From a virus (lineage: Duplodnaviria; Heunggongvirae; Uroviricota; Caudoviricetes): DNA of 24,361 nucleotides. Position numbers and translations under genes: made by a program. Under the pieces are notes generated by a model. That model saw nothing but the letters and a program-made list of their open reading frames with translations, searched no databases and had not been told where the DNA came from. The stretch lies in the IMG/VR virus record IMGVR_UViG_2700989535_000002, one strand, 5' to 3'. Every line of letters begins with the position of its first letter. Positions within the stretch are counted from its first letter, which is position 1. Shown in pieces: positions 4,166 to 14,698 of the stretch.

Positions 4166-6443
4166 AGCCTCCGGGCGTTTTGTCCCTCCGTCAGCATTTG
4201 CCGCAGGCACCGGTAAGGCGTTTACCGGTGCTTATGCATGGAACGCGCCACGCGAGGCTGTCGGGCGCGAAAGACCCCTTACACGTGATGAGATGCGTCA
4301 GGTGCAAGGTGTTTTATCCACGATTAACCGCCTGCCTTACTTTTTGCGCTCGCTGTTTACTTCACGCTATGACTACATCCGGCGCAATAAAAGCCCGGTG
4401 CACGGGTTTTATTTTCTCACATCCACTTTTCAGCGTCGTTTATGGCCGCGCATTGAGCGTGTGAATCAGCGCCATGAAATGAACACCGACGCGTCGTTGC
4501 TGTTTCTGGCAGAGCGTGACCATTATGCGCGTCTGCCGGGGATGAATGACAAGGAGCTGAAAAAGTTTGCCGCCCGTATCTCATCGCAGCTTTTCATGAT
4601 GTATGAGGAACTCTGCGATGCCTGGGTGGATGCGCATGGCGAAAAAGAATCGCTGTTTACGGATGAGGCGCAGGCTCACCTCTATGGTCATGTTGCTGGT
4701 GCTGCACGTGCTTTCAATATTTCCCCTCTCTACTGGAAAAAATACCGTAAAGGGCAGATGACCACGAGGCAGGCATATTCTGCCATTGCCCGTCTGTTTA
4801 ACGATGAGTGGTGGACCCATCAGCTTAAAGGCCAGCGTATGCGCTGGCATGAGGCGTTACTGATTGCTGTCGGGGAGGTCAATAAAGACCGTTCTCCTTA
4901 TGCCAGTAAACATGCCATTCGTGATGTGCGTGCACGCCGCCAGGCAAATCTGGAATTTCTTAAATCGTGTGATCTCGAAAACAGGGAAACCGGCGAGCGC
5001 ATCGACCTTATCAGTAAGGTGATGGGCAGTATTTCTAATCCTGAAATTCGCCGGATGGAGCTGATGAACACCATTGCCGGTATTGAGCGTTACGCCGCAG
5101 CAGAGGGTGATGTGGGGATGTTTATCACGCTGACCGCGCCGTCAAAGTATCACCCGACACGTCAGGTCAGAAAAGGCGAAAGTAAAACCGTCCAGCTAAA
5201 TCACGGCTGGAACGATGAGGCATTTAATCCAAAGGATGCGCAGCGTTATCTCTGCCGTATCTGGAGCCTGATGCGCACGGCATTCAAGGATAATGATTTA
5301 CAGGTCTACGGTTTGCGTGTCGTCGAGCCACACCACGACGGAACGCCGCACTGGCATATGATGCTTTTTTGTAATCCGCGCCAGCGTAACCAGATTATCG
5401 AAATCATGCGTCGCTATGCGCTCAAAGAGGATGGCGACGAAAGAGGAGCCGCGCGAAACCGTTTTCAGGCAAAACATCTTAACCGGGGCGGTGCTGCGGG
5501 ATATATCGCGAAATACATTTCAAAAAACATCGACGGCTATGCACTGGATGGTCAGCTCGATAACGACACCGGCAGGCCGCTGAAAGACACTGCAGCGGCT
5601 GTTAGCGCATGGGCGTCAACGTGGCGCATCCCGCAATTTAAAACGGTTGGCCTGCCGACAATGGGGGCTTACCGTGAACTACGCAAATTGCCGCGCGGCG
5701 TCAGCATTGCTGATGAGTTTGACGAGCGCGTCGAGGCTGCACGCGCCGCCGCAGACAGTGGTGATTTTGCGTTGTATATCAGCGCGCAGGGTGGGGCAAA
5801 TGTCCCGCGCGATTGTCAGACTGTCAGAGTCGCCCGTAGCCCGTCGGATGACGTTAACGAGTACGAGGAAGAAGTCGAGAGAGTGGTCGGCATTTACGCG
5901 CCGCATCTCGGCGCGCGTCATATTCATATCACCAGAACGACGGACTGGCGCATTGTGCCGAAAGTTCCGGTCGTTGAGCCTTTGACTTTAAAAAGCGGCA
6001 TCGCCGCGCCTCGGAGTCCTGTCAATAACTGTGGAAAGCTCACCGGCGGTAATACTTCGTTACCGGTTCCCACGCCTTCTGAGCACGCCGCAGCAGTGCT
6101 TAATCTGGTTGATGACGGTGTTATCGAATGGAATGACCCGGAGGTCGTGAGGACGCTCAGGGGTGCATTAAAACACGGACTGAGAAGACCAAACCGTCAG
6201 CAAAGAAACGGAAGCCCGTTAAAACCACATGAAATTGCGCCATCGGCCAGACTGACCCGGTCGGAACGAATGCAAATCACCCGTATCCGCGTTGACCTTG
6301 CTCAGAACGGTATCAGGCCGCAGCGATGGGAGCTTGAGGCGCTGGCGCGTGGGGCAACCGTAAATTATGGCGGAAAAAAATTCACGTATCTGGTTGCTAA
6401 TGAGTGGTTCGGGTTTCAAGATGACGTGTCATTTTTCATATAA
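4155..6443 (+). CDS. A: Replication initiation endonuclease A (rolling-circle initiator)
   Basis: 762 aa from ATG at 4155 (track ORF begins at 4113). Large last gene of the early operon, same position and nearly same size as P2 A. Contains HxH-like GTPHWHMM and tyrosine-rich GYIAKYISKN segments typical of rolling-circle initiators. Confidence 0.85.
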   Translation: MAVKASGRFVPPSAFAAGTGKAFTGAYAWNAPREAVGRERPLTRDEMRQVQGVLSTINRLPYFLRSLFTSRYDYIRRNKSPVHGFYFLTSTFQRRLWPRIERVNQRHEMNTDASLLFLAERDHYARLPGMNDKELKKFAARISSQLFMMYEELCDAWVDAHGEKESLFTDEAQAHLYGHVAGAARAFNISPLYWKKYRKGQMTTRQAYSAIARLFNDEWWTHQLKGQRMRWHEALLIAVGEVNKDRSPYASKHAIRDVRARRQANLEFLKSCDLENRETGERIDLISKVMGSISNPEIRRMELMNTIAGIERYAAAEGDVGMFITLTAPSKYHPTRQVRKGESKTVQLNHGWNDEAFNPKDAQRYLCRIWSLMRTAFKDNDLQVYGLRVVEPHHDGTPHWHMMLFCNPRQRNQIIEIMRRYALKEDGDERGAARNRFQAKHLNRGGAAGYIAKYISKNIDGYALDGQLDNDTGRPLKDTAAAVSAWASTWRIPQFKTVGLPTMGAYRELRKLPRGVSIADEFDERVEAARAAADSGDFALYISAQGGANVPRDCQTVRVARSPSDDVNEYEEEVERVVGIYAPHLGARHIHITRTTDWRIVPKVPVVEPLTLKSGIAAPRSPVNNCGKLTGGNTSLPVPTPSEHAAAVLNLVDDGVIEWNDPEVVRTLRGALKHGLRRPNRQQRNGSPLKPHEIAPSARLTRSERMQITRIRVDLAQNGIRPQRWELEALARGATVNYGGKKFTYLVANEWFGFQDDVSFFI

Positions 6444-6619
6444 AACATTTCAAAATTCAATGTAATGAAAGCATATCGTATATCGCTTTAATATGTGTTA
6501 TTCTTCTTGGTTGTTAATGTTTGATTTTATATGAAAAAATATTATATATAGAAAGATCAAATACAACGGTTTACTTGTTATGATGCAATTATTGGTTAGT
6601 TAGTGAGATACATCGCCAT

Positions 6620-6860
6620 CAATTGGGTATTTTTTACCCGTGGAAAGTTAACACTTTCTACCGTTTACCCCGCGCAACGCCCCTGCCAGCGACAAGAGTC
6701 ACAGGACCAGGTGGTATGGCGTATGGGAATTCGAACCCTTTGGGCGACAAAGGGTTCGTGGAGCAGGGAGCTAGTGCTGTTCAATCTCATCCTTATGAGG
6801 GCGAACCATAGTGTTGGAGCAGACATACCGTTTGCACACTATGGGCATAAGGAGCAAATC
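6620..6860 (+). ncRNA. Candidate structured RNA / long 5' leader upstream of the RT operon (possible retron msr-msd)
   Basis: GC-richer than the flanking AT-rich spacer. Perfect hairpins: GAAAGT/ACTTTC (6643-6658), CGAACCCTTTG/CAAAGGGTTCG (6732-6758), and a composite stem CCTTATG..CCATAGTGT / ACACTATGG..CATAAGG (6791-6852) whose 3' arm overlaps the downstream SD. a1/a2 repeats not identified, so retron ncRNA identity is unproven. Confidence 0.3.
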
Positions 6861-7016
6861 ATGAAGAATGATAAATTAACCAACGAACAGCAGGCGCAGA
6901 ACAAGTCAAACCTGAAAAAGAGGGCTGGTTATGCTTGGGAATTATTCAAATGGGGTATTAGACTGTTTGATTTAGTCACTCGAGCACTGGGCTACTTAGA
7001 AGGGGGTGGTGAGTAA
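6861..7016 (+). CDS. Small 51-aa protein of unknown function
   Basis: ATG at 6861 with strong SD AAGGAG 6 nt upstream; polar N-terminus, amphipathic C-terminus (AGYAWELFKWGIRLFDLVTRALGYL). The longer GTG-initiated track ORF (6603) is not supported. Confidence 0.4.
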   Translation: MKNDKLTNEQQAQNKSNLKKRAGYAWELFKWGIRLFDLVTRALGYLEGGGE

Positions 7017-7052
7017 TGCGTCCTCCCTAGTTTCAATAGCATGGAGTTGCCT

Positions 7053-7361
7053 ATGTTACATAAAGCCCTTCGTTTAATAAGGCAATACCATAAAGAATCA
7101 ATAGTTGAGTTATCTTCATCTTTAGGTATTCCAAAAGACAAAATAGTATCGCTTGAAAGCGGAGTTTGGTCACCGTCGATTGAAGTCTTAGAGCGTTACG
7201 CCTCCCATTTCGACATACCAGTATCCTCTTTAGTATTCTTTTCGGAATCATTAGGCACGCAAGGCCGTTTGTCTAAGCGATTGCGTTTAAATTTAGCCGG
7301 TAAAGTTCTGGATGTTCTGGAGTGGGTAAGTAATAAAAATGAAAAAACGGAAAAAGCTTAA
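7053..7361 (+). CDS. XRE-family helix-turn-helix DNA-binding protein
   Basis: 102 aa from ATG at 7053 (GGAG 6 nt upstream). HTH_3-like segment LSSSLGIPKDKIVSLESGVWSPSIEVLERYASHFDIP. Its 3' end overlaps the RT start by 23 nt. Confidence 0.6.
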   Translation: MLHKALRLIRQYHKESIVELSSSLGIPKDKIVSLESGVWSPSIEVLERYASHFDIPVSSLVFFSESLGTQGRLSKRLRLNLAGKVLDVLEWVSNKNEKTEKA

Positions 7362-8289
7362 GGTTAATACTAAAAATAAATCTTATGACATAATGGATTC
7401 GCCATTTTACAAACTCAAAAGTAAAAGAAAACTGGCGAATTTGCTTTGTGTTAGTCTTGAAGAATTATACTCTTTGAGAAAAGATGAAGGAAACTATTCC
7501 GTTTTTGAGCAACTTTCTAAAAAAGGAAAAGCACGAAAAATACAAAAGCCTTTAGAAAAACTAGAACTTGTACATACACGAATTGCAAGTTTGTTATCAC
7601 GGATTGCTTTGCCAGAATATCTGCACTCGGGGAAGAAGAAGTGCTCTAATGTGACGAATGCTAAAGCTCATCTTAATAATGAAAAGATGATGACAACAGA
7701 TATTAAAGCTTTTTTTCCATCAACTACAAGAGGGATGATATTTTCTTTTTTCTTTTCGGTGATGAAAATGTCATCTGATGTTGCTGATGTTTTGTCCCAC
7801 ATATGTACTTGTCATGACCGATTACCAACAGGTAGTCGCATCAGTATGCCGTTGGCATATTTTGCAAATTCAAGAATGTTTGGTGAAATATATCAACTTT
7901 GCCAAAAGTTACGAGTTAACATGACTGTTTATGTTGATGATCTCACTTTTTCAGGTGGTAACGTAAATCGATTGTTTTGCGCTGTAATTCGTAAGATCGT
8001 TAATAAGCATGGACATGTTATACACCCAACGAAAACAAAATTATATGCCAGAGATAAGCCTAAGTTGGTAACTGGAGTTATTGTATTCGGTAATGCTTTA
8101 AAAGTTAGGAATGAGCAGCATTTTTTGATGGCTAGGGAAATAGATTATTGGAAAATAATTAAAGACGCCGAAAATGCGAGAGAAACAATCATTGCCAAAA
8201 AGCTCTTTGGCCGTTTGCATTCAATGGGAGTGATTGAGCAACGTTACAAATCGAAGGTGCTTACTTTAAAGGCTAATACTGCAAATTAA
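7339..8289 (+). CDS. Reverse transcriptase, retron-type
   Basis: 316 aa. NAKAH (NAxxH), TDIKAFFPS, LPTGSRISMPLAYFAN, YVDDLTFS (YxDD catalytic motif) and LVTGVIV (VTG) align motif-by-motif with retron RTs such as Ec86 as recalled. Alternative start at 7393 possible. Confidence 0.8.
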   Translation: MKKRKKLKVNTKNKSYDIMDSPFYKLKSKRKLANLLCVSLEELYSLRKDEGNYSVFEQLSKKGKARKIQKPLEKLELVHTRIASLLSRIALPEYLHSGKKKCSNVTNAKAHLNNEKMMTTDIKAFFPSTTRGMIFSFFFSVMKMSSDVADVLSHICTCHDRLPTGSRISMPLAYFANSRMFGEIYQLCQKLRVNMTVYVDDLTFSGGNVNRLFCAVIRKIVNKHGHVIHPTKTKLYARDKPKLVTGVIVFGNALKVRNEQHFLMAREIDYWKIIKDAENARETIIAKKLFGRLHSMGVIEQRYKSKVLTLKANTAN

Positions 8290-8412
8290 CATATTGAATG
8301 TATTGCATAAAAGCATCAATAATTAAAATGACTTGGCGTTAGTAACGCCGCAAGTGCAGGAATTTACTTTCGATGCAGGCGGTGTTGATTAGAAACCTCA
8401 GAAAGTAGTTAG

Positions 8413-8850
8413 CTATGAAGCTGACGTCACAAAATTAACGCCAAGAGTCAACAGGTTTGTCACTGCTCCAGCAATTACACCTGGAGTTCCGTCTTTTACT
8501 GCACTGATAATTTTATCACCCATCGTTTCATTACCGCCAAGTGCTTCGGGTTTTTTGTTGAGCACCGCGAGTGCTTTCTCGGTCAGGCGCACATCATGAA
8601 AACCGGTCTGATGGTCTGTTCCGTACAGAATATAGCCGTTTTCGCTTAGGAAAGTGAATGTGCCATCAACCACACTACGCAACTGATTCAGTGCTTTCAT
8701 TTCTGGTGAGTTAAGTTGGTCAAAGTAGTCATCAGGTAACGCGGCGTTAAATTTTTTGTAGGTGATGACTTGTGGTACAGGAAAGTTATCCCATAGCACC
8801 GCAAAGATTTCTGCCGTCTGTTGGTTGAATAATTCGAGATTTTTGGACAT
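8413..8850 (-). CDS. Hypothetical tail-anchored membrane protein (145 aa)
   Basis: Minus-strand ORF with SD AGGGA 7 nt upstream of ATG; soluble N-terminal ~115 aa and C-terminal hydrophobic helix (GTPGVIAGAVTNLLTLGVNFV). Convergent with the RT operon. Confidence 0.6.
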   Translation of the reverse strand: MSKNLELFNQQTAEIFAVLWDNFPVPQVITYKKFNAALPDDYFDQLNSPEMKALNQLRSVVDGTFTFLSENGYILYGTDHQTGFHDVRLTEKALAVLNKKPEALGGNETMGDKIISAVKDGTPGVIAGAVTNLLTLGVNFVTSAS

Positions 8851-9181
8851 GCATAGTTCCCTTTCATCAATTAAAGACCCTTATGCCGACTGGGCAAAGA
8901 GGCTAACTGTAATGGCCTCAAATAACGACCTGAGCTCTCGCGAGGTGGACAGTTACACTGAAAAAATGGTTGAACAAGCCAGTAAAGATGAGCTTATGGT
9001 CGTTATAAAATACCTGTTAAATCACATCAGAATGAATAAATAAAATGATCTATATCAAGATGTTATCTCACATTTATGAAAGTCCGTGGACAACGATTTT
9101 TCTGCTAATTGTTGTCAGTACGTGCCTCAACAGTGTGATTGGTGCATTGCGCGGCCAGTGACAACTATAAAAATTGATCAG

Positions 9182-9210
9182 AACCGGCATCATGAATGCC
9201 GGTTTTTTTG
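9182..9210 (+). terminator. Intrinsic terminator-like hairpin
   Basis: AACCGGCAT / ATGCCGGTT 9-bp perfect stem, 5-nt loop, followed by a 7-T run. Confidence 0.5.
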
Positions 9211-9367
9211 TGCTTTTTCTGTGATATCCCCGTTTTTATCTGTGCATGCAATATGTGCATGGTTTTGCATGTGCCGGAGTTACATGTTCTGGCCGTGCGT
9301 CCGCCAAGACTGGCGTGGCTCAAAAGCGGTATTGCAACTGCATTAAAACCGCCCCATGAAGCGGGCG

Positions 9368-9386
9368 GGCGAGGCGGGGAGAGCAT
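9368..9386. other. Candidate cos (cohesive end) site
   Basis: GGCGAGGCGGGGAGAGCAT matches the P2 19-nt cohesive end as recalled (GGCGAGGCGGGGAAAGCAC) at 17 of 19 positions; sits between A and Q as expected. Confidence 0.45.
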
Positions 9387-9461
9387 TGCCCGCATCCGTT
9401 GTTTTATGTTATTACTACATTGTTAAATTGGATGATTCTTATTTCTTGTGAGGAAGCTGTT

Positions 9462-10730
9462 ATGGCATTGATTGAAGGATTTCGAATATCAAATTTCAGG
9501 TCTCTGAAGAACGTTACGTTAGGAAAAACTTGGAACGATAGAACAAAGAAACCATTGACACCACTTACGGTTGTTATTGGGCGTAATGGTTCTGGAAAAA
9601 GTTCGCTTTTTGATGCATTTGGTTTCTTGGCTGATGCCCTTACCTATGGGGTAGAAGAAGCATGTCATAAGAATGGTCGCGGTGGCTTCGAACGCTTACG
9701 GTCTGCAGGGAGTAGTGAGGATATTGAATTCGAGATTTACTATAGAGAATCACCAAAAGACCGTCCAATCACATATGAATTGTCAATTGGCATTGATGCT
9801 ACTGGAAGACCTATAGTTAAGAAAGAAAGGTTGCGTCAGCGCAGGAGAGGTCAAAATAGAGGGTGGCCTTTCTCTTTTCTTGAATTATACAATGGAGTAG
9901 GAAAGGTTTGGTCAGGGGAATCTTTGTCAGAAAAAAATGAAGAGCATGGCAATATTGATGTTTTGTTAAGTGAAGAGTCTAATGGAACTATGCCAATCGA
10001 GCTAAGCAATACTCAAATGCTTGGTATTGCTACTTTAGGCAACTTGAAAGAGCATCCGAGAATAGCCAGATTCAGAAAATTTATTGAAGGCTGGTATCTT
10101 TCTTATTTTACTCCTGATGCTGCAAGAGATTTGCCTCGAGTTGGCCCGCAGAAACATCTAAATAGAATAGGTGATAACTTAGGCAATTTTGTTCAGTATA
10201 TGGAAAGAGAACATCCCAAAAAATTTAGACAGGTTCTTGAGGATATAGCCCTGAAGATTCCAGGAATTATAAAGATAGATACAGAAGCATCACCTGATGG
10301 AAGATTGCTTTTAAGGTTTTTTAACAAGGGTTTTGATAAACCATTTTATGCTCAACAAATATCTGATGGAACATTAAAACTGTTTGCTTACATGCTTCTC
10401 TTGGAAGATCCTGACCCTGCACCGTTTGTATGTATAGAGGAGCCAGAGAACGGCCTGTATCATAAATTATTACAATCTCTTGCAGAGGAATTTAGGAGCC
10501 ACGCTACAGGTAAGAAAGGTGATTCTCAGTTGTTTGTAACTACTCATCAACCATATTTTGTGGATGCACTCAATCCAGAGGAAGTATGGATATTAGAAAA
10601 AGAATCAGATGGCTTTTCCGTGCTGAGTAGAGCATCTGACTATCCTGATGTGATGGCAATGTATGAACAAGGATTGCCGTTAGGAAGTTTATGGTACAGT
10701 GATCACATTGATAGCAAGGAATTTGACTGA
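9462..10730 (+). CDS. ABC-type / AAA_21-like ATPase (OLD/AriA/AbiLi-like)
   Basis: 422 aa from ATG at 9462 (GAGGAAG SD; the track start at 9399 is TTG). N-terminal FRISNFRSL ... VVIGRNGSGKSSLFDAF (Walker A); C-terminal FVCIEEPENGLYH (Walker B/D-loop) and FVTTHQPYF (H-loop). Confidence 0.85.
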   Translation: MALIEGFRISNFRSLKNVTLGKTWNDRTKKPLTPLTVVIGRNGSGKSSLFDAFGFLADALTYGVEEACHKNGRGGFERLRSAGSSEDIEFEIYYRESPKDRPITYELSIGIDATGRPIVKKERLRQRRRGQNRGWPFSFLELYNGVGKVWSGESLSEKNEEHGNIDVLLSEESNGTMPIELSNTQMLGIATLGNLKEHPRIARFRKFIEGWYLSYFTPDAARDLPRVGPQKHLNRIGDNLGNFVQYMEREHPKKFRQVLEDIALKIPGIIKIDTEASPDGRLLLRFFNKGFDKPFYAQQISDGTLKLFAYMLLLEDPDPAPFVCIEEPENGLYHKLLQSLAEEFRSHATGKKGDSQLFVTTHQPYFVDALNPEEVWILEKESDGFSVLSRASDYPDVMAMYEQGLPLGSLWYSDHIDSKEFD

Positions 10731-11362
10731 TGCATTATGAGATCTTAGTCGAGGGACAATGTGAACTAACTGCTCTTTCAATTCTATTACCTAAGATTAT
10801 TGGAGAGTATAATAATCCACATACTTGGAAAATACATAAACATAGAGGTAATGGTTCTATTCCTGATAACCCAGCATTAGCTCCAAAAATTTCAGATACT
10901 TCACTCTTGGGGCAATTGCCTGCAAAATTAAGGGCTTACTCCAATAATCCAGACCCTAATAGAAAAGTGATTGTATTATTAGATCTAGATGATAAAGATC
11001 GAGAATCGTTCCATACGGCTCTAATTGACTTGTTAAAATATTGTTCGAATCCGTTTGATGTGTCATTTCCTTTTGCAGAAGAGGAATTAGAAGCATGGTA
11101 CCTTGGTGATAGACAAGCATTGATAGCTTACAATGCAAAAATCAATATGACAAAACTAAATGGCTATATTCAAGACTCAATATGTGATACATGGCGTTTT
11201 TTATTAGAGGCTGATGAGCCTTCACTGTTAAAACTGAAAAAGAAAGATAAAAGACTGCTTGAAAAGAAAGTTTTCTGGGCTAAAAAAATTACTCCTCATA
11301 TGGATGTTGATAGGAATTTATCGCCTAGTTTTAATAGTTTTAAAGAATGTTTGCATAATTAA
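10730..11362 (+). CDS. TOPRIM-like small protein (DUF4276/DUF4435-style) partnered with the ATPase
   Basis: 210 aa; start overlaps the ATPase stop (TGATG). N-terminal ILVEGQCE and VIVLLDLDD (DxD) resemble TOPRIM/OLD-family nuclease motifs; EEELEAWYLGD downstream. Confidence 0.6.
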   Translation: MHYEILVEGQCELTALSILLPKIIGEYNNPHTWKIHKHRGNGSIPDNPALAPKISDTSLLGQLPAKLRAYSNNPDPNRKVIVLLDLDDKDRESFHTALIDLLKYCSNPFDVSFPFAEEELEAWYLGDRQALIAYNAKINMTKLNGYIQDSICDTWRFLLEADEPSLLKLKKKDKRLLEKKVFWAKKITPHMDVDRNLSPSFNSFKECLHN

Positions 11363-11368
11363 ATGAGA

Positions 11369-11395
11369 GGCCACCTCCTTAGGAGGTGGTTTTTC
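11369..11395 (+). terminator. Rho-independent terminator of the ATPase/TOPRIM operon
   Basis: CCACCTCC / GGAGGTGG stem with 3-nt loop followed by TTTTT, 8 nt after the stop codon. Confidence 0.7.
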
Positions 11396-11697
11396 ATAAT
11401 CTACTGTTCATATGAAGCTACAATGATATTTTGATTTCTATTCTAGGATTTTTACTTTGCCGTTCAGATGCGCGATTAATTTTTTTTGATACTTGCATGC
11501 ATTTGATAATTACCTCGTTTACATCTATTGAATTAACAAATTGCTATGTTGTTCAAAAATTATTTTGTCATAACTTCTTCTTGATGTAGATAATCAAGGG
11601 TGGATGCTGATTATACTGTTATAATTATTAATTACATGAGATATTGTGATTTTGGCTAATGCAATTGCGACGAGAAAAATAATCAAGATAATAATGA

Positions 11698-11716
11698 GGC
11701 CATCTTATTGATGGCC
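11698..11716 (-). terminator. Possible terminator downstream of Q
   Basis: GGCCATC / GATGGCC stem (5-nt loop) about 15 nt beyond the Q stop on the minus strand, followed by a T-rich stretch; weaker than the other two. Confidence 0.3.
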
Positions 11717-11730
11717 CTTGAAAGCTAATA

Positions 11731-12753
11731 TCAGTCAAAATGATAAGGCTTGAACTTAATGACTTCCTTTTCTAACCAGTTATTGAGTTCGGCAATACGA
11801 GTCTGGAGTGGGATAAGTTCATTGCGGACAAAGACCTTTGCCACTTTCTCAATATCACCCAGTGACCCGACGTTCTCCGGCTTGCCGCCCATCAACTGAA
11901 AAGGAATGCGGTGCGCGTCCAGCAGGTCAGCGGCGCTGGCTTTTTTGATATTAAAAAAATCGTCCTTCGTTGCCACTTCACTGAGCGGGATAATTTTAAT
12001 GCCGTCGGCTTTTCCCTGCGGGGCATAGAGAAACAGATTTTTAAAGTTGTTGCGGCCTTTCGACTTGACCATGTTTTCGCGAAGCATTTCGATATCGTTG
12101 CGATCCTGCACGGCATCAGTGACGTACATGATGTATCCGGCATGTGCGCCGTTTTCGTAATACTTGCGGCGGAACAGCGTGGCTGACTCATTCAGCCAGG
12201 CAGAGTTAAGGGCGCTGAGATATTCCGGCAGGCCGTACAGCTCCTGATTAATATCCGGCTCCAGCAGATGAAACACGGAGCCGGGCGCGAAAGGTGTCGG
12301 CTCGTTGAAGGACGGCACCCACCAGTAAACATCCTCCTCCACGCCACGGCGGGTATATTTTGCCGGTGAGGTTTCCAGTCTGATGACCTTACCGGTGGTG
12401 CTGTAACGCTTTTCCAGAAATGCATTACCAAATACCAGAAAATCCAGCACAAAGCGGCTGAAATCCTGCTGGGAAAGCCATGGATGCGGGATAAATGTCG
12501 AGGCCAGAATATTACGTTTGACGTAAATCGGTGAGCTGTGATGCACGGCAGCACGCAGGCTTTTTGCCAGACCGGTAAAGCTGACCGGTGGCTCATACCA
12601 TCTGCCGTTACTGATGCACTCAACGTAATCCAGAATGTCACGGCGGTCGAGTACCGGCACCGGCTCACCAAAGGTGAATGCCTCCATTTTCGGGGCGCTG
12701 GCGGTCATTGTTTTTGCCGCAGGTTGCGGTGTTTTCCCTTTTTTCTTGCTCAT
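11731..12753 (-). CDS. Q: Portal protein
   Basis: 340-aa minus-strand ORF; first gene after the cos region, start overlapping the P stop; position and size as P2 Q. Confidence 0.85.
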   Translation of the reverse strand: MSKKKGKTPQPAAKTMTASAPKMEAFTFGEPVPVLDRRDILDYVECISNGRWYEPPVSFTGLAKSLRAAVHHSSPIYVKRNILASTFIPHPWLSQQDFSRFVLDFLVFGNAFLEKRYSTTGKVIRLETSPAKYTRRGVEEDVYWWVPSFNEPTPFAPGSVFHLLEPDINQELYGLPEYLSALNSAWLNESATLFRRKYYENGAHAGYIMYVTDAVQDRNDIEMLRENMVKSKGRNNFKNLFLYAPQGKADGIKIIPLSEVATKDDFFNIKKASAADLLDAHRIPFQLMGGKPENVGSLGDIEKVAKVFVRNELIPLQTRIAELNNWLEKEVIKFKPYHFD

Positions 12754-14525
12754 CAGTAAAACTCCAGAATGGTGGATGTCAGCGGGGTGCTGATACCGGC
12801 GGTGAGTGGCTCATTTAACAGGGCGTGCATGGTCGCCCAGGCGAGGTCGGCATGGCTGGCTTCCTCGCTGCGGCTGGCCTCATAGGTGGCGCTGCGTCCG
12901 CTGCTGGTCATGGTCTTGCGGATAGCCATGAACGAGCTGGTGATGTCGGTGGCGCTGACGTCATATTCCAGACAGCCACGGCGGATAACGTCTTTTGCCT
13001 TGAGCACCATTGCGGTTTTCATTTCCGGCGTGTAGCGGATATCGCGCGCGGCGGGATAGAACGAGCGCACGAGCTGGAACACGCCGACACCGAGGCCGGT
13101 GGCATCAATTCCGATGTATTCGACGTTGTATTTTTCGGTGAGTTTGCGGATGGATTCCGCCTGTGTGGCAAAGTCCATGCCTTTCCACTGGTGACGCTCA
13201 AGTATTCTGAATTTGCCACCGGCCACCACCGGCGGTGCCAGCACCACGCATCCGGCACTGTCGCCACGGTGTGACGGGTCGTAACCAATCCATACCGGAC
13301 GGGAGCCGAACGGATTGGCGGCAAAGGGTGCATAGTCTTCCCATTCTTCCAGCGTGTCGACCATGCAGCGTTGCAGCTCCTCGAACGGGAACACCGATGC
13401 CTTGTCGTCAACAAATTCACACATGAACAGGTTTTTAAAATCGTCGGCGCTGTTTTCGCGTTTGAGCTGCTCAATGTCGAACAGTGTGCAGCCTCCTTTC
13501 AGGGCATCCTCAATGGTGACAATCTGCCGCCACTGACCGTCCGCACAGAGAAGCCCACCGGCTAGGGCGTTATGACTGACGTCGATTTCCACACGTTCGG
13601 CGGCGCTGGCGCGTCCCCGGTTGAACAGTTCACCCGACCAGAACGGGTAGGCGTCGTGCGCCAGCGTGGACGGGGTGGAGAAATAGGTCGAGCGCAGGTG
13701 ACTCTGTGAGGCCATACCTGATGCCACCTTACGCAGTACCTGAAAATTCGGGATCCAGAAAATCTCGTCGACGTACAGGTCGCCGTTATGGCTCTGCGCG
13801 GTGTTGGAGTTGGTGCCGAGAAAAATCAGTTTTGCGCCGTTATTGCCCAGGACAATCGGGTCACCGGTCAGGTCAACGTCAACCAGACGGGCAAAGGCGA
13901 TGATGTATTCGCGGAACACATACGCCTGCGTTTTACTGGCTGACAGAAAAATCTGGTTATGACCGGTTTTCAGGGCGCGCAGCAGCGCCTCGCGGGAAAA
14001 ATAAAACGTCGCGCCAATCTGGCGGGATTTCAGGATATCGCGGATGCGGTGCTCAAGCCCGGCGCGATACCAGTGCAACTGATAGTCGAAAGACTGCTCA
14101 AAGAAAATCTGCCCCAGCTTTTCGATGGCCTCGTCACTGAAAAAATTCTTTTTCGGTTTGCGCCGCCCGCCTTTGTTGCGGTTAGCGACGTTCGGATTAA
14201 GGTCTGCCTCGTTGCCGGTCTGACTGTAACGGTTGACCCGTGCCAGTCGTTCAATCTGGCGTCCGAGCAGGTCAATTTCCTTGAAGTCACCGCCGGTTTT
14301 CTGCGGTTTGATGATGAGCTGGGTCAGCCGCGCTTCCAGACTCATTTCGACACGGCTGATGGGGGCAACGCTGTCCCAGCCGTCGCGCTGTTTCCAGCTC
14401 TGCACCGTCGGGCGTTTCATCTGCAACATGGCGGCAATCTGCGGCACGGAAAATCCCTGCCAGTACAGCAGCGCCGCCTGACGACGCGGGTCGTGTAAAA
14501 GAGTGGTGTCTGTGGTGATGGTCAT
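12753..14525 (-). CDS. P: Terminase large (ATPase) subunit
   Basis: 590 aa from ATG at 14525 (track ORF extends to 14555); same size and position as P2 P. Confidence 0.85.
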   Translation of the reverse strand: MTITTDTTLLHDPRRQAALLYWQGFSVPQIAAMLQMKRPTVQSWKQRDGWDSVAPISRVEMSLEARLTQLIIKPQKTGGDFKEIDLLGRQIERLARVNRYSQTGNEADLNPNVANRNKGGRRKPKKNFFSDEAIEKLGQIFFEQSFDYQLHWYRAGLEHRIRDILKSRQIGATFYFSREALLRALKTGHNQIFLSASKTQAYVFREYIIAFARLVDVDLTGDPIVLGNNGAKLIFLGTNSNTAQSHNGDLYVDEIFWIPNFQVLRKVASGMASQSHLRSTYFSTPSTLAHDAYPFWSGELFNRGRASAAERVEIDVSHNALAGGLLCADGQWRQIVTIEDALKGGCTLFDIEQLKRENSADDFKNLFMCEFVDDKASVFPFEELQRCMVDTLEEWEDYAPFAANPFGSRPVWIGYDPSHRGDSAGCVVLAPPVVAGGKFRILERHQWKGMDFATQAESIRKLTEKYNVEYIGIDATGLGVGVFQLVRSFYPAARDIRYTPEMKTAMVLKAKDVIRRGCLEYDVSATDITSSFMAIRKTMTSSGRSATYEASRSEEASHADLAWATMHALLNEPLTAGISTPLTSTILEFY

Positions 14526-14698
14526 GAATACCTCGCCGTGATGAATACACGGCAAGGCTACTGAGTCGCGCCCCGCGATTCGCTAAGGTGCTGTTGTGTC
14601 AGTGATAAGCCATCCGGGACTGATGGCGGAGGATGCGCATCGTCGGGAAACTGATGCCGACATGTGACTCCTCTAATCACTATTCAGGACTCCTGACA
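14526..14698. promoter_or_regulatory. Divergent late promoter region between P and O
   Basis: 173-bp intergenic region between divergent late operons; in P2 this carries the Ogr-dependent late promoters. Short dyads present (CCATC-N7-GATGG, GTGA-N9-TCAC) but no confident consensus match. Confidence 0.3.

Follow-up and report, generated by a model that had tools for sequence, protein, structure and literature searches.

The virus record IMGVR_UViG_2700989535_000002 comprises 24,361 nucleotides (nt) of a P2-like E. coli prophage, and we refer to this whole stretch of DNA as the window. Between its cos site and its portal gene lies a cassette of two genes, A and B. We are confident that this cassette is a member of HEC-01, a candidate family catalogued in PADLOC that has an ABC ATPase plus Toprim architecture. 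It is not a new kind of defence system; HEC-01 was already named in a 2024 preprint. The best explanation for the pair, which we hold with moderate confidence, is a mobile HEC-01 cassette with an ATPase-gated Toprim nuclease that would abort phage infection.

Assignment to HEC-01

Both proteins match their HEC-01 models in PADLOC-DB over nearly the full length. A matches HEC-01A (PDLC04182) at 2.2e-190 and 630.9 bits, with residues 1-418 aligned to positions 1-402 of 406 in the profile. B matches HEC-01B (PDLC04205) at 7.5e-81 and 268.9 bits, with residues 1-209 aligned to positions 1-210 of 213. The genes are adjacent, on the same strand and in one operon. The Pfam, PADLOC and fold searches are all highly significant and far beyond chance. 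HEC-01 stands for "Hma-embedded candidate 01", described as an ABC ATPase with a TOPRIM-like partner that has a conserved metal site (Payne et al., 10.1101/2024.01.29.577857).

A first-pass annotation, made from the letters of the window, had proposed a two-gene module that pairs an ABC ATPase with a TOPRIM-like protein at 9462-11362, between cos and the portal gene. Its coordinates are exact and its placement is right. The proteins are an AAA_21 ATPase and an OLD-type Toprim-fold protein of the DUF4276 family. It had also suggested a distinct variant of an OLD- or PARIS-like system. That was right, with one qualification: the partner protein shows that this is neither PARIS nor AbiL, and the variant already had a name. 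The features of the region are as follows.

9368-9386, no strand: P2-type cos site, GGCGAGGCGGGGAGAGCAT, the left edge of the cos-to-portal spacer
9450-9456, plus strand: Shine-Dalgarno GAGGAAG of gene A, read from the sequence, 5 nt ahead of the ATG at 9462
9462-10730, plus strand: gene A (HEC-01A), a 422 amino acid SMC/Rad50-like ABC ATPase, presumed sensor and regulator
10726-10732, plus strand: TGATG stop/start overlap of A and B, seen in the sequence
10730-11362, plus strand: gene B (HEC-01B), a 210 amino acid DUF4276 protein with an OLD-type Toprim fold, presumed metal-dependent nuclease effector
11363-11397, plus strand: intrinsic terminator of the cassette, with a 16 base pair stem, a 3 nt loop and a T-run on the descending arm
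11398-11730, no strand: AT-rich spacer of 333 nt (31% guanine plus cytosine, GC), from the cassette terminator to the portal stop codon
11731-12753, minus strand: portal gene (Pfam Phage_portal)
12753-14555, minus strand: large terminase gene

Gene A

A mechanical list of open reading frames (ORFs) offers a longer frame for gene A with a TTG start at 9399. All 41 homologues in the alignment begin with MA(L/K)IEG where the ATG at 9462 falls, so 9462 must be the start. Pfam finds AAA_21 in protein A at 2.1e-41, over the entire profile and above the gathering score, along with AAA_15 (1.1e-15) and SMC_N. The Walker A, Walker B/D-loop and H-loop motifs claimed in the first-pass annotation are all present. 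They are invariant in 42 aligned sequences, as is the ABC signature. Walker A is GRNGSGKS (G40 to S47, including K46), the ABC signature is S301-D302-G303, Walker B is C324-I-E326-E327-P-E, the D-loop is N330-G331-L332 and the H-loop is T360-T361-H362-Q-P. With these motifs A looks catalytically competent as an ATPase. The chief length-variable stretch in the 42-homologue alignment is an insert at about residues 152-181.

A sequence search of the PDB with A gave nothing beyond a marginal match to the P-loop of SMC3, so the comparison had to be made at the level of the fold. The predicted structure has a mean predicted local distance difference test score (pLDDT) of 75.8 and an ABC head fold. 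The heads of SMC, Rad50 and PtuA are closest to it, RecF and RecN match too, and AriA, the ATPase of PARIS, ranks only 27th. A is an SMC/Rad50-like ABC ATPase without special kinship to the ATPases of PARIS or OLD.

Two other features of A are worth recording. Residues 213-239 (window ~10098-10178) read LSYFTPDAAR.LP..GPQKHLN..GDNLGN and are near-invariant across phyla, yet their pLDDT is below 50. This segment may be an interface or a Q-loop region that becomes ordered only in the dimer or together with B. Some distant homologues of A, for example in Shinella and Amycolatopsis, sit in open frames of 560-800 codons (loci L030, L065, L070, L076, L078, L088 and L092). The match to the 422-residue core is at the C-terminal end of these frames, which may therefore carry N-terminal extensions.

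Gene B

Pfam assigns B to DUF4276 at 5.1e-10, with 40.3 bits against a cut-off of 30.2. The families named in the first-pass annotation thus divide: AAA_21 and AAA_15 are found in A and DUF4276 in B, while DUF4435 and Toprim_OLD have no match in B. The threshold for all Pfam and PADLOC negatives on B is E <= 0.1, and at this threshold B matches no PADLOC model outside HEC-01. No PHROG family matches B either. A sequence search of the PDB with a B profile found no relative, giving chance PHD-finger matches at E ~0.1.

The link from DUF4276 to Toprim comes from the literature and from the fold. Two papers independently place DUF4276 in the Toprim superfamily. The Menshen paper states this membership, and the HEC preprint compares the conserved metal site of the HEC-01 TOPRIM-like protein with that of BpOLD (10.1101/2024.01.29.577857). 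The AlphaFold model of B has a pLDDT of 95.4 and a predicted template modelling score of 0.90, and its fold is that of a Toprim domain. In the fold search BpOLD and PH0156 match it better than AriB does, and the scores drop to 6.7 after the leading matches.

The acidic residues expected of a Toprim nuclease are where they should be in the model. E8, part of LVEG, directly follows the first strand (2-7). D85-L-D87, part of VIVLLDLDD, directly follows the third strand (78-82), and E118-E119 come after the fourth. The N-terminal glutamate and the DxD motif were noticed in the first-pass annotation, which let its case stand or fall with a Toprim relation and conserved acidic residues among the homologues of B. 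Both were found. E8, D85, D87, E118 and E119 are invariant in 45 homologues. Across 44 loci at ~30% identity, D85, D87, E118, E119 and K180 are each kept in 43. The position of E8 is a glutamate in all 26 of these loci that align at the N-terminus, and nearly all of the 18 unaligned ones have an N-terminal (V/L/I/T)EE motif. B is thus predicted, from sequence and model, to be a Toprim-fold protein with its metal-binding acidic residues intact.

B also has an H-K-H triplet at residues 36-38 (window 10835-10843), at the end of strand 2. It is invariant in close homologues, and at ~30% identity only H36 is kept. The triplet may be an active-site or substrate-binding feature specific to the subfamily.

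One operon, one unit

The TGA of A (10728-10730) shares one base with the ATG of B. The resulting TGATG, which the first-pass annotation had picked out, indicates that the two genes are likely to be translationally coupled. The cassette also ends in a terminator of its own, as had been claimed. The hairpin has a folding energy of -24.9 kcal/mol (z = -6.5), which no shuffle out of 200 equals. Its core stem is CCACCTCC/GGAGGTGG, followed by TTTTT. In the repeat search it appears as inverted repeat I3, and the consensus scan flagged a hairpin there on the minus strand only.

At least 493 loci with a relative of B turned up when one genome per species was scanned; 80 of them were kept, all from different species and spread over many phyla. 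All 79 of these that have upstream DNA carry an A-type ORF directly upstream, on the same strand. In 68 of these 79 species, between -11 and +12 nt separate the A stop from the B start. Across 72 loci the identity of A to the window protein and that of B are correlated with r = 0.90. A and B are strictly paired, and the two genes co-evolve as one unit.

The family is large, and this copy is rare. In a representative library clustered at 50% identity, 1,489 entries are relatives of B at E <= 0.001, and with the stricter limit of E <= 1e-10 there are 668. A search of 5,426 complete E. coli genomes, in near and in distant mode, gave no match to the cassette. Draft and read-archive assemblies of E. 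coli do contain the exact B protein, on record as "DUF4276 family protein [Escherichia coli]". A collection of 50,697 phage records has a single distant match to B (tblastn, 31% identity), and the plasmid collection has two distant ones. The cassette is rare in E. coli genomes and in phage records.

A mobile cassette in a P2-like prophage

The site GGCGAGGCGGGGAGAGCAT agrees with the annotated cosL of phage P2 (NC_001895 positions 1-19) at 17 of 19 bases. From cos to the portal stop is 187 nt in P2 and 2,345 nt here, 1,901 of which are the two genes. Their GC content (39% in A and 33% in B) contrasts with the 53-55% of the phage replication and packaging genes. The A-to-Q (portal) region of P2 is known in the literature as a defence hotspot that holds old and tin.

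Eight E. coli loci contain the exact B protein. All are the same P2-like prophage, and the cassette is always between cos and the portal gene. The prophage is beside yegS/yegR in all three loci that reach the host flank. What lies left of cos varies among these loci. One arrangement, that of the window, is a retron-like reverse transcriptase cluster; another is an ASCH/DUF3850 gene with a 174 amino acid ORF; in the third the place is empty. When window 6407-9333 is compared with E. coli loci L001-L008, homology breaks at 9242-9333, just left of cos.

The same cassette occurs in quite different company elsewhere. A Rahnella P2-like prophage has a variant with 51% identity in B at the same position as in the window. 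A Klebsiella lambdoid prophage has a 72% identical variant adjoining the integrase. Between the E. coli and Klebsiella copies, DNA is homologous at 9458-11348 alone, a stretch that coincides exactly with the two genes. In Dickeya, a 73% identical variant lies on an island that also has an integrase, AlpA and a primase, among three pairs that resemble toxin-antitoxin systems (RelE/HTH, Gp49/HTH and TacA/acetyltransferase). Shinella, Cobetia, Vibrio and one metagenome contig have variants too, each by itself with housekeeping genes on both sides. A repeat search around the cassette found the terminator hairpin and short chance pairs. Direct or inverted repeats at its flanks, which would point to transposition, were not found. 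Judged by these comparisons, the cassette is a self-contained, horizontally mobile two-gene unit that is accessory cargo in the P2-like E. coli prophage.

Proposed function

That the pair has an ATPase-gated anti-phage nuclease function seems to us rather probable. The scenario we propose would run as follows. A and B would be made in fixed proportion through translational coupling and would form a complex, within which the ATPase would hold the nuclease inactive. An infection cue, either a phage protein or an abnormal nucleic-acid structure, would change how the ATPase is assembled or which nucleotide state it is in. Thus changed, the ATPase would free or activate the Toprim nuclease. The nuclease would then cut nucleic acid, possibly tRNA, and infection would be stopped at the cost of growth.

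The argument that B is under the control of A and becomes active upon infection is one of analogy with PARIS, P2 Old and WonAB, and also with OLD and Gabija. The ATPase of PARIS, AriA, first retains and later sets free AriB, a Toprim protein that cleaves tRNA-Lys. With P2 Old, it is the destabilisation of an inactive tetramer that makes the Toprim site accessible for cleaving tRNA. The WonAB nuclease cannot act without its ATPase, and the system arrests translation. The position in a prophage defence hotspot and the type VI retron next door also speak for the proposal. A cold-seep study reports protection of E. coli by one HEC-01 representative from at least one phage among T4, T5 and T7.

Several points weigh against this proposal. 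We infer complex formation, trigger, substrate and anti-phage outcome alike, the first three purely by analogy. The HEC-01 representative tested in the HEC preprint gave no protection against a BASEL subset and several classic coliphages, and the same preprint says that enrichment near defence systems is absent for most candidate systems on its shortlist (10.1101/2024.01.29.577857). The cold-seep report, the only positive one, is brief, gives few details and describes only the AAA_21 domain. Published anti-phage tests of HEC-01 are therefore mixed, and activity of the family is not firmly established. The lone homologous cassettes among housekeeping genes have no defence neighbours. In 69 of 72 loci A shows stronger conservation than B, and the closest 120 homologues of A are 65-90% identical across Proteobacteria, Cyanobacteria, Desulfobacterota and Nitrospirota. 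This would be unusual for a sensor that has to track fast-evolving phage proteins. Expression in the lysogen is also a difficulty. A sigma-70 consensus scan finds no match at 9387-9461, between cos and A; the promoter-like matches in the scan total 8, below the shuffle mean of 10.4.

Given how strongly A is conserved, one may speculate that its cue is a conserved one and not a variable phage protein. One can imagine a scenario where B is a translation-arresting RNase, for example a tRNase like AriB and Old, A senses a conserved nucleic-acid or host-state cue, and the E. coli copy becomes the first HEC-01 member with a clear phenotype in its native host. We put this forward as a doubtful possibility. 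If true, it would account for the null result of the heterologous test in the HEC preprint.

Alternative explanations

The cassette could be read as a divergent PARIS or AbiL, in which an AriA-AriB-like complex senses anti-restriction proteins such as Ocr and releases an AriB that cleaves tRNA-Lys. The arrangement of two genes, with the ABC ATPase first and the Toprim protein second, is the same. PADLOC entries for AriA match A at 2.1e-39 and 1e-18, and AbiLi matches it at 1.3e-30. The HHpred tables of the PARIS paper, in the part available to us, even give DUF4276 as a weak relative of AriB with 91.8% probability. However, this reading fails on the partner that defines these systems. B has no match to DUF4435, to AriB or to the second AbiL component, it has 210 residues against 305 in AriB, and its fold is nearer to BpOLD and PH0156. 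The ATPase matches do not rescue the argument, as they are unspecific. The "AriA" models are 304 and 373 positions long against 304 and 374 for AAA_21 and AAA_15, they match the same range of A as AAA_21 does, and they are far weaker than HEC-01A (2e-190). The fold of A is likewise nearer to the SMC, Rad50 and PtuA heads than to AriA. In the available part of the supplementary tables of Rousset et al., DUF4276 appears only as a weak HHpred relative of AriB and Old, and no system of AAA_21 plus DUF4276 is given. We consider a divergent PARIS or AbiL extremely improbable.

A second alternative is a toxin-antitoxin or addiction module. Here B would be a toxic nuclease and A its antitoxin, and the pair would stabilise the prophage or island without dedicated sensing of phage. 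A tightly coupled two-gene operon with a small nuclease-fold protein would suit this, the Dickeya copy sits among toxin-antitoxin-like pairs, and the lone chromosomal cassettes fit selfish persistence. The Pfam description of AAA_21 also names the AbiEii type IV toxin-antitoxin system. However, the putative antitoxin is a 422 amino acid ATPase with all its catalytic motifs invariant, which argues for an active regulated step and not for simple sequestration. Deletion of the ATPase causes no toxicity in the related PARIS and WonAB systems, where the nuclease depends on it to act. We think an addiction module unlikely. The pair might instead serve the DNA metabolism of the phage or the cell, as a RecF/RecR- or SbcCD-like pair in repair, replication or packaging near cos. 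In RecF-RecR, too, an ABC ATPase is paired with a Toprim protein. The fold of A is closest to SMC and Rad50 heads and also matches RecF and RecN, A is highly conserved, the cassette abuts cos, and some copies are among housekeeping genes. Against this, the cassette is absent from P2, from most P2-like phages, from ST147-VIM1phi7.1 (a phage with the same retron as the window) and from the 5,426 complete E. coli genomes, and only the one distant homologue of B turned up in the phage records, with no PHROG family for it. The patchy distribution across phyla, the foreign GC content and the movement as a unit fit accessory, conflict-type genes, and B keeps its nuclease-type acidic residues. A role in DNA metabolism is thus highly unlikely.

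Neighbouring features

A pair resembling a type VI retron lies just left of cos, at window 7041-8289 on the plus strand. Its 106 amino acid helix-turn-helix protein matches PADLOC HTH_VI at 7.7e-31 and overlaps a 316 amino acid reverse transcriptase that matches RT_VI at 2.8e-105. A search of the whole window with Rfam at gathering thresholds returned nothing, so no msr/msd or known RNA partner was found. Two further ORFs travel with the retron: one of 137 amino acids at 6603-7016 on the plus strand (phrog_5826, 3.8e-61) and one of 145 amino acids at 8413-8850 on the minus strand (phrog_2266, 2.4e-61). Both lack a Pfam or PADLOC family, and each might be a further part of the retron. At the DNA level, window ~6574-9393 shows 82% identity to Klebsiella phage ST147-VIM1phi7.1, a phage without the ATPase/Toprim cassette. 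The accessory region of these P2-like prophages is bipartite around cos: in near-identical E. coli prophages the left part is swapped and the right part, with the ATPase and Toprim genes, is constant.

Two terminator-like hairpins with T-runs are found just left of cos, at 9180-9206 and 9240-9262 on the plus strand. They probably end transcription of the left-hand cargo before cos, and the cassette therefore needs a promoter of its own.

To the right of the cassette, the AT-rich spacer contains a terminator-like site of the portal operon at 11697-11717 on the minus strand. It also has three promoter-like sites on the plus strand, which are aimed at the 3' end of the portal gene. A search with 11396-11735 against the phage collection found no match. 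By sequence comparison the spacer is outside the mobile cassette, because the homology to the Klebsiella copy covers 9458-11348 only.

Significance

At least one environmental survey has HEC-01 among its most abundant candidate defence types, but the family lacks a mechanism and comes with contradictory phenotypes. The copy in the window is a natural test case in a native host. Its setting, the A-to-Q region of a P2-like E. coli prophage where P2 itself has old and tin, is classic and genetically tractable. The P2 hotspot carries cargo on both sides of cos, a type VI retron on the left and HEC-01 on the right, and the cassette passes between prophages of unrelated types as a unit of exactly two genes. 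The finding leaves the range of known kinds of defence system unchanged.

Comparison with known systems

The resemblance to PARIS is in the ATPase. A has the AAA_15/AAA_21 type of ATPase that PARIS has (AAA_21 at 2.1e-41), which is a feature generic to many systems, and we reject PARIS since B is a DUF4276 protein and matches neither DUF4435 in Pfam nor AriB in PADLOC. AbiL is rejected on similar grounds: the AbiLi match to A is partial (profile 50-272 of 326) and B matches no AbiL model.

The P2 Old, BpOLD, TsOLD and GajA proteins have the ATPase and Toprim domains fused in one polypeptide, whereas here they are in two genes. OLD of class 1 or 2 does not apply, as there are two separate ORFs, B has no Toprim_OLD match in Pfam and the likeness is at the level of the fold only. 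In P2 the old gene is across cos from the position of the cassette in the window.

MADS and Menshen share domains with the pair. Mad4 and some NsnC C-terminal domains are homologous to DUF4276, and A gives weak Mad3 matches. NCBIfam MAD3 (NF047739) scores A at 93.5 bits against a cut-off of 420, so MADS is rejected. No methyltransferase or other MADS/Menshen genes are nearby, where the neighbours are phage genes and the retron. PD-T4-4 and WonAB have nuclease partners (PD-T4-4_B and WonB) of the PD-(D/E)xK type, whereas B has a Toprim fold. Septu is also rejected, although PtuA is among the folds closest to A, as its nuclease PtuB is an HNH protein and not a Toprim one.

This leaves HEC-01, which the window pair matches over the full length of both models with adjacent genes on the same strand. 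The difference from the founding description is one of location. The copy in the window is not Hma-embedded, and has its place in the cos-to-portal spacer of a P2-like prophage.

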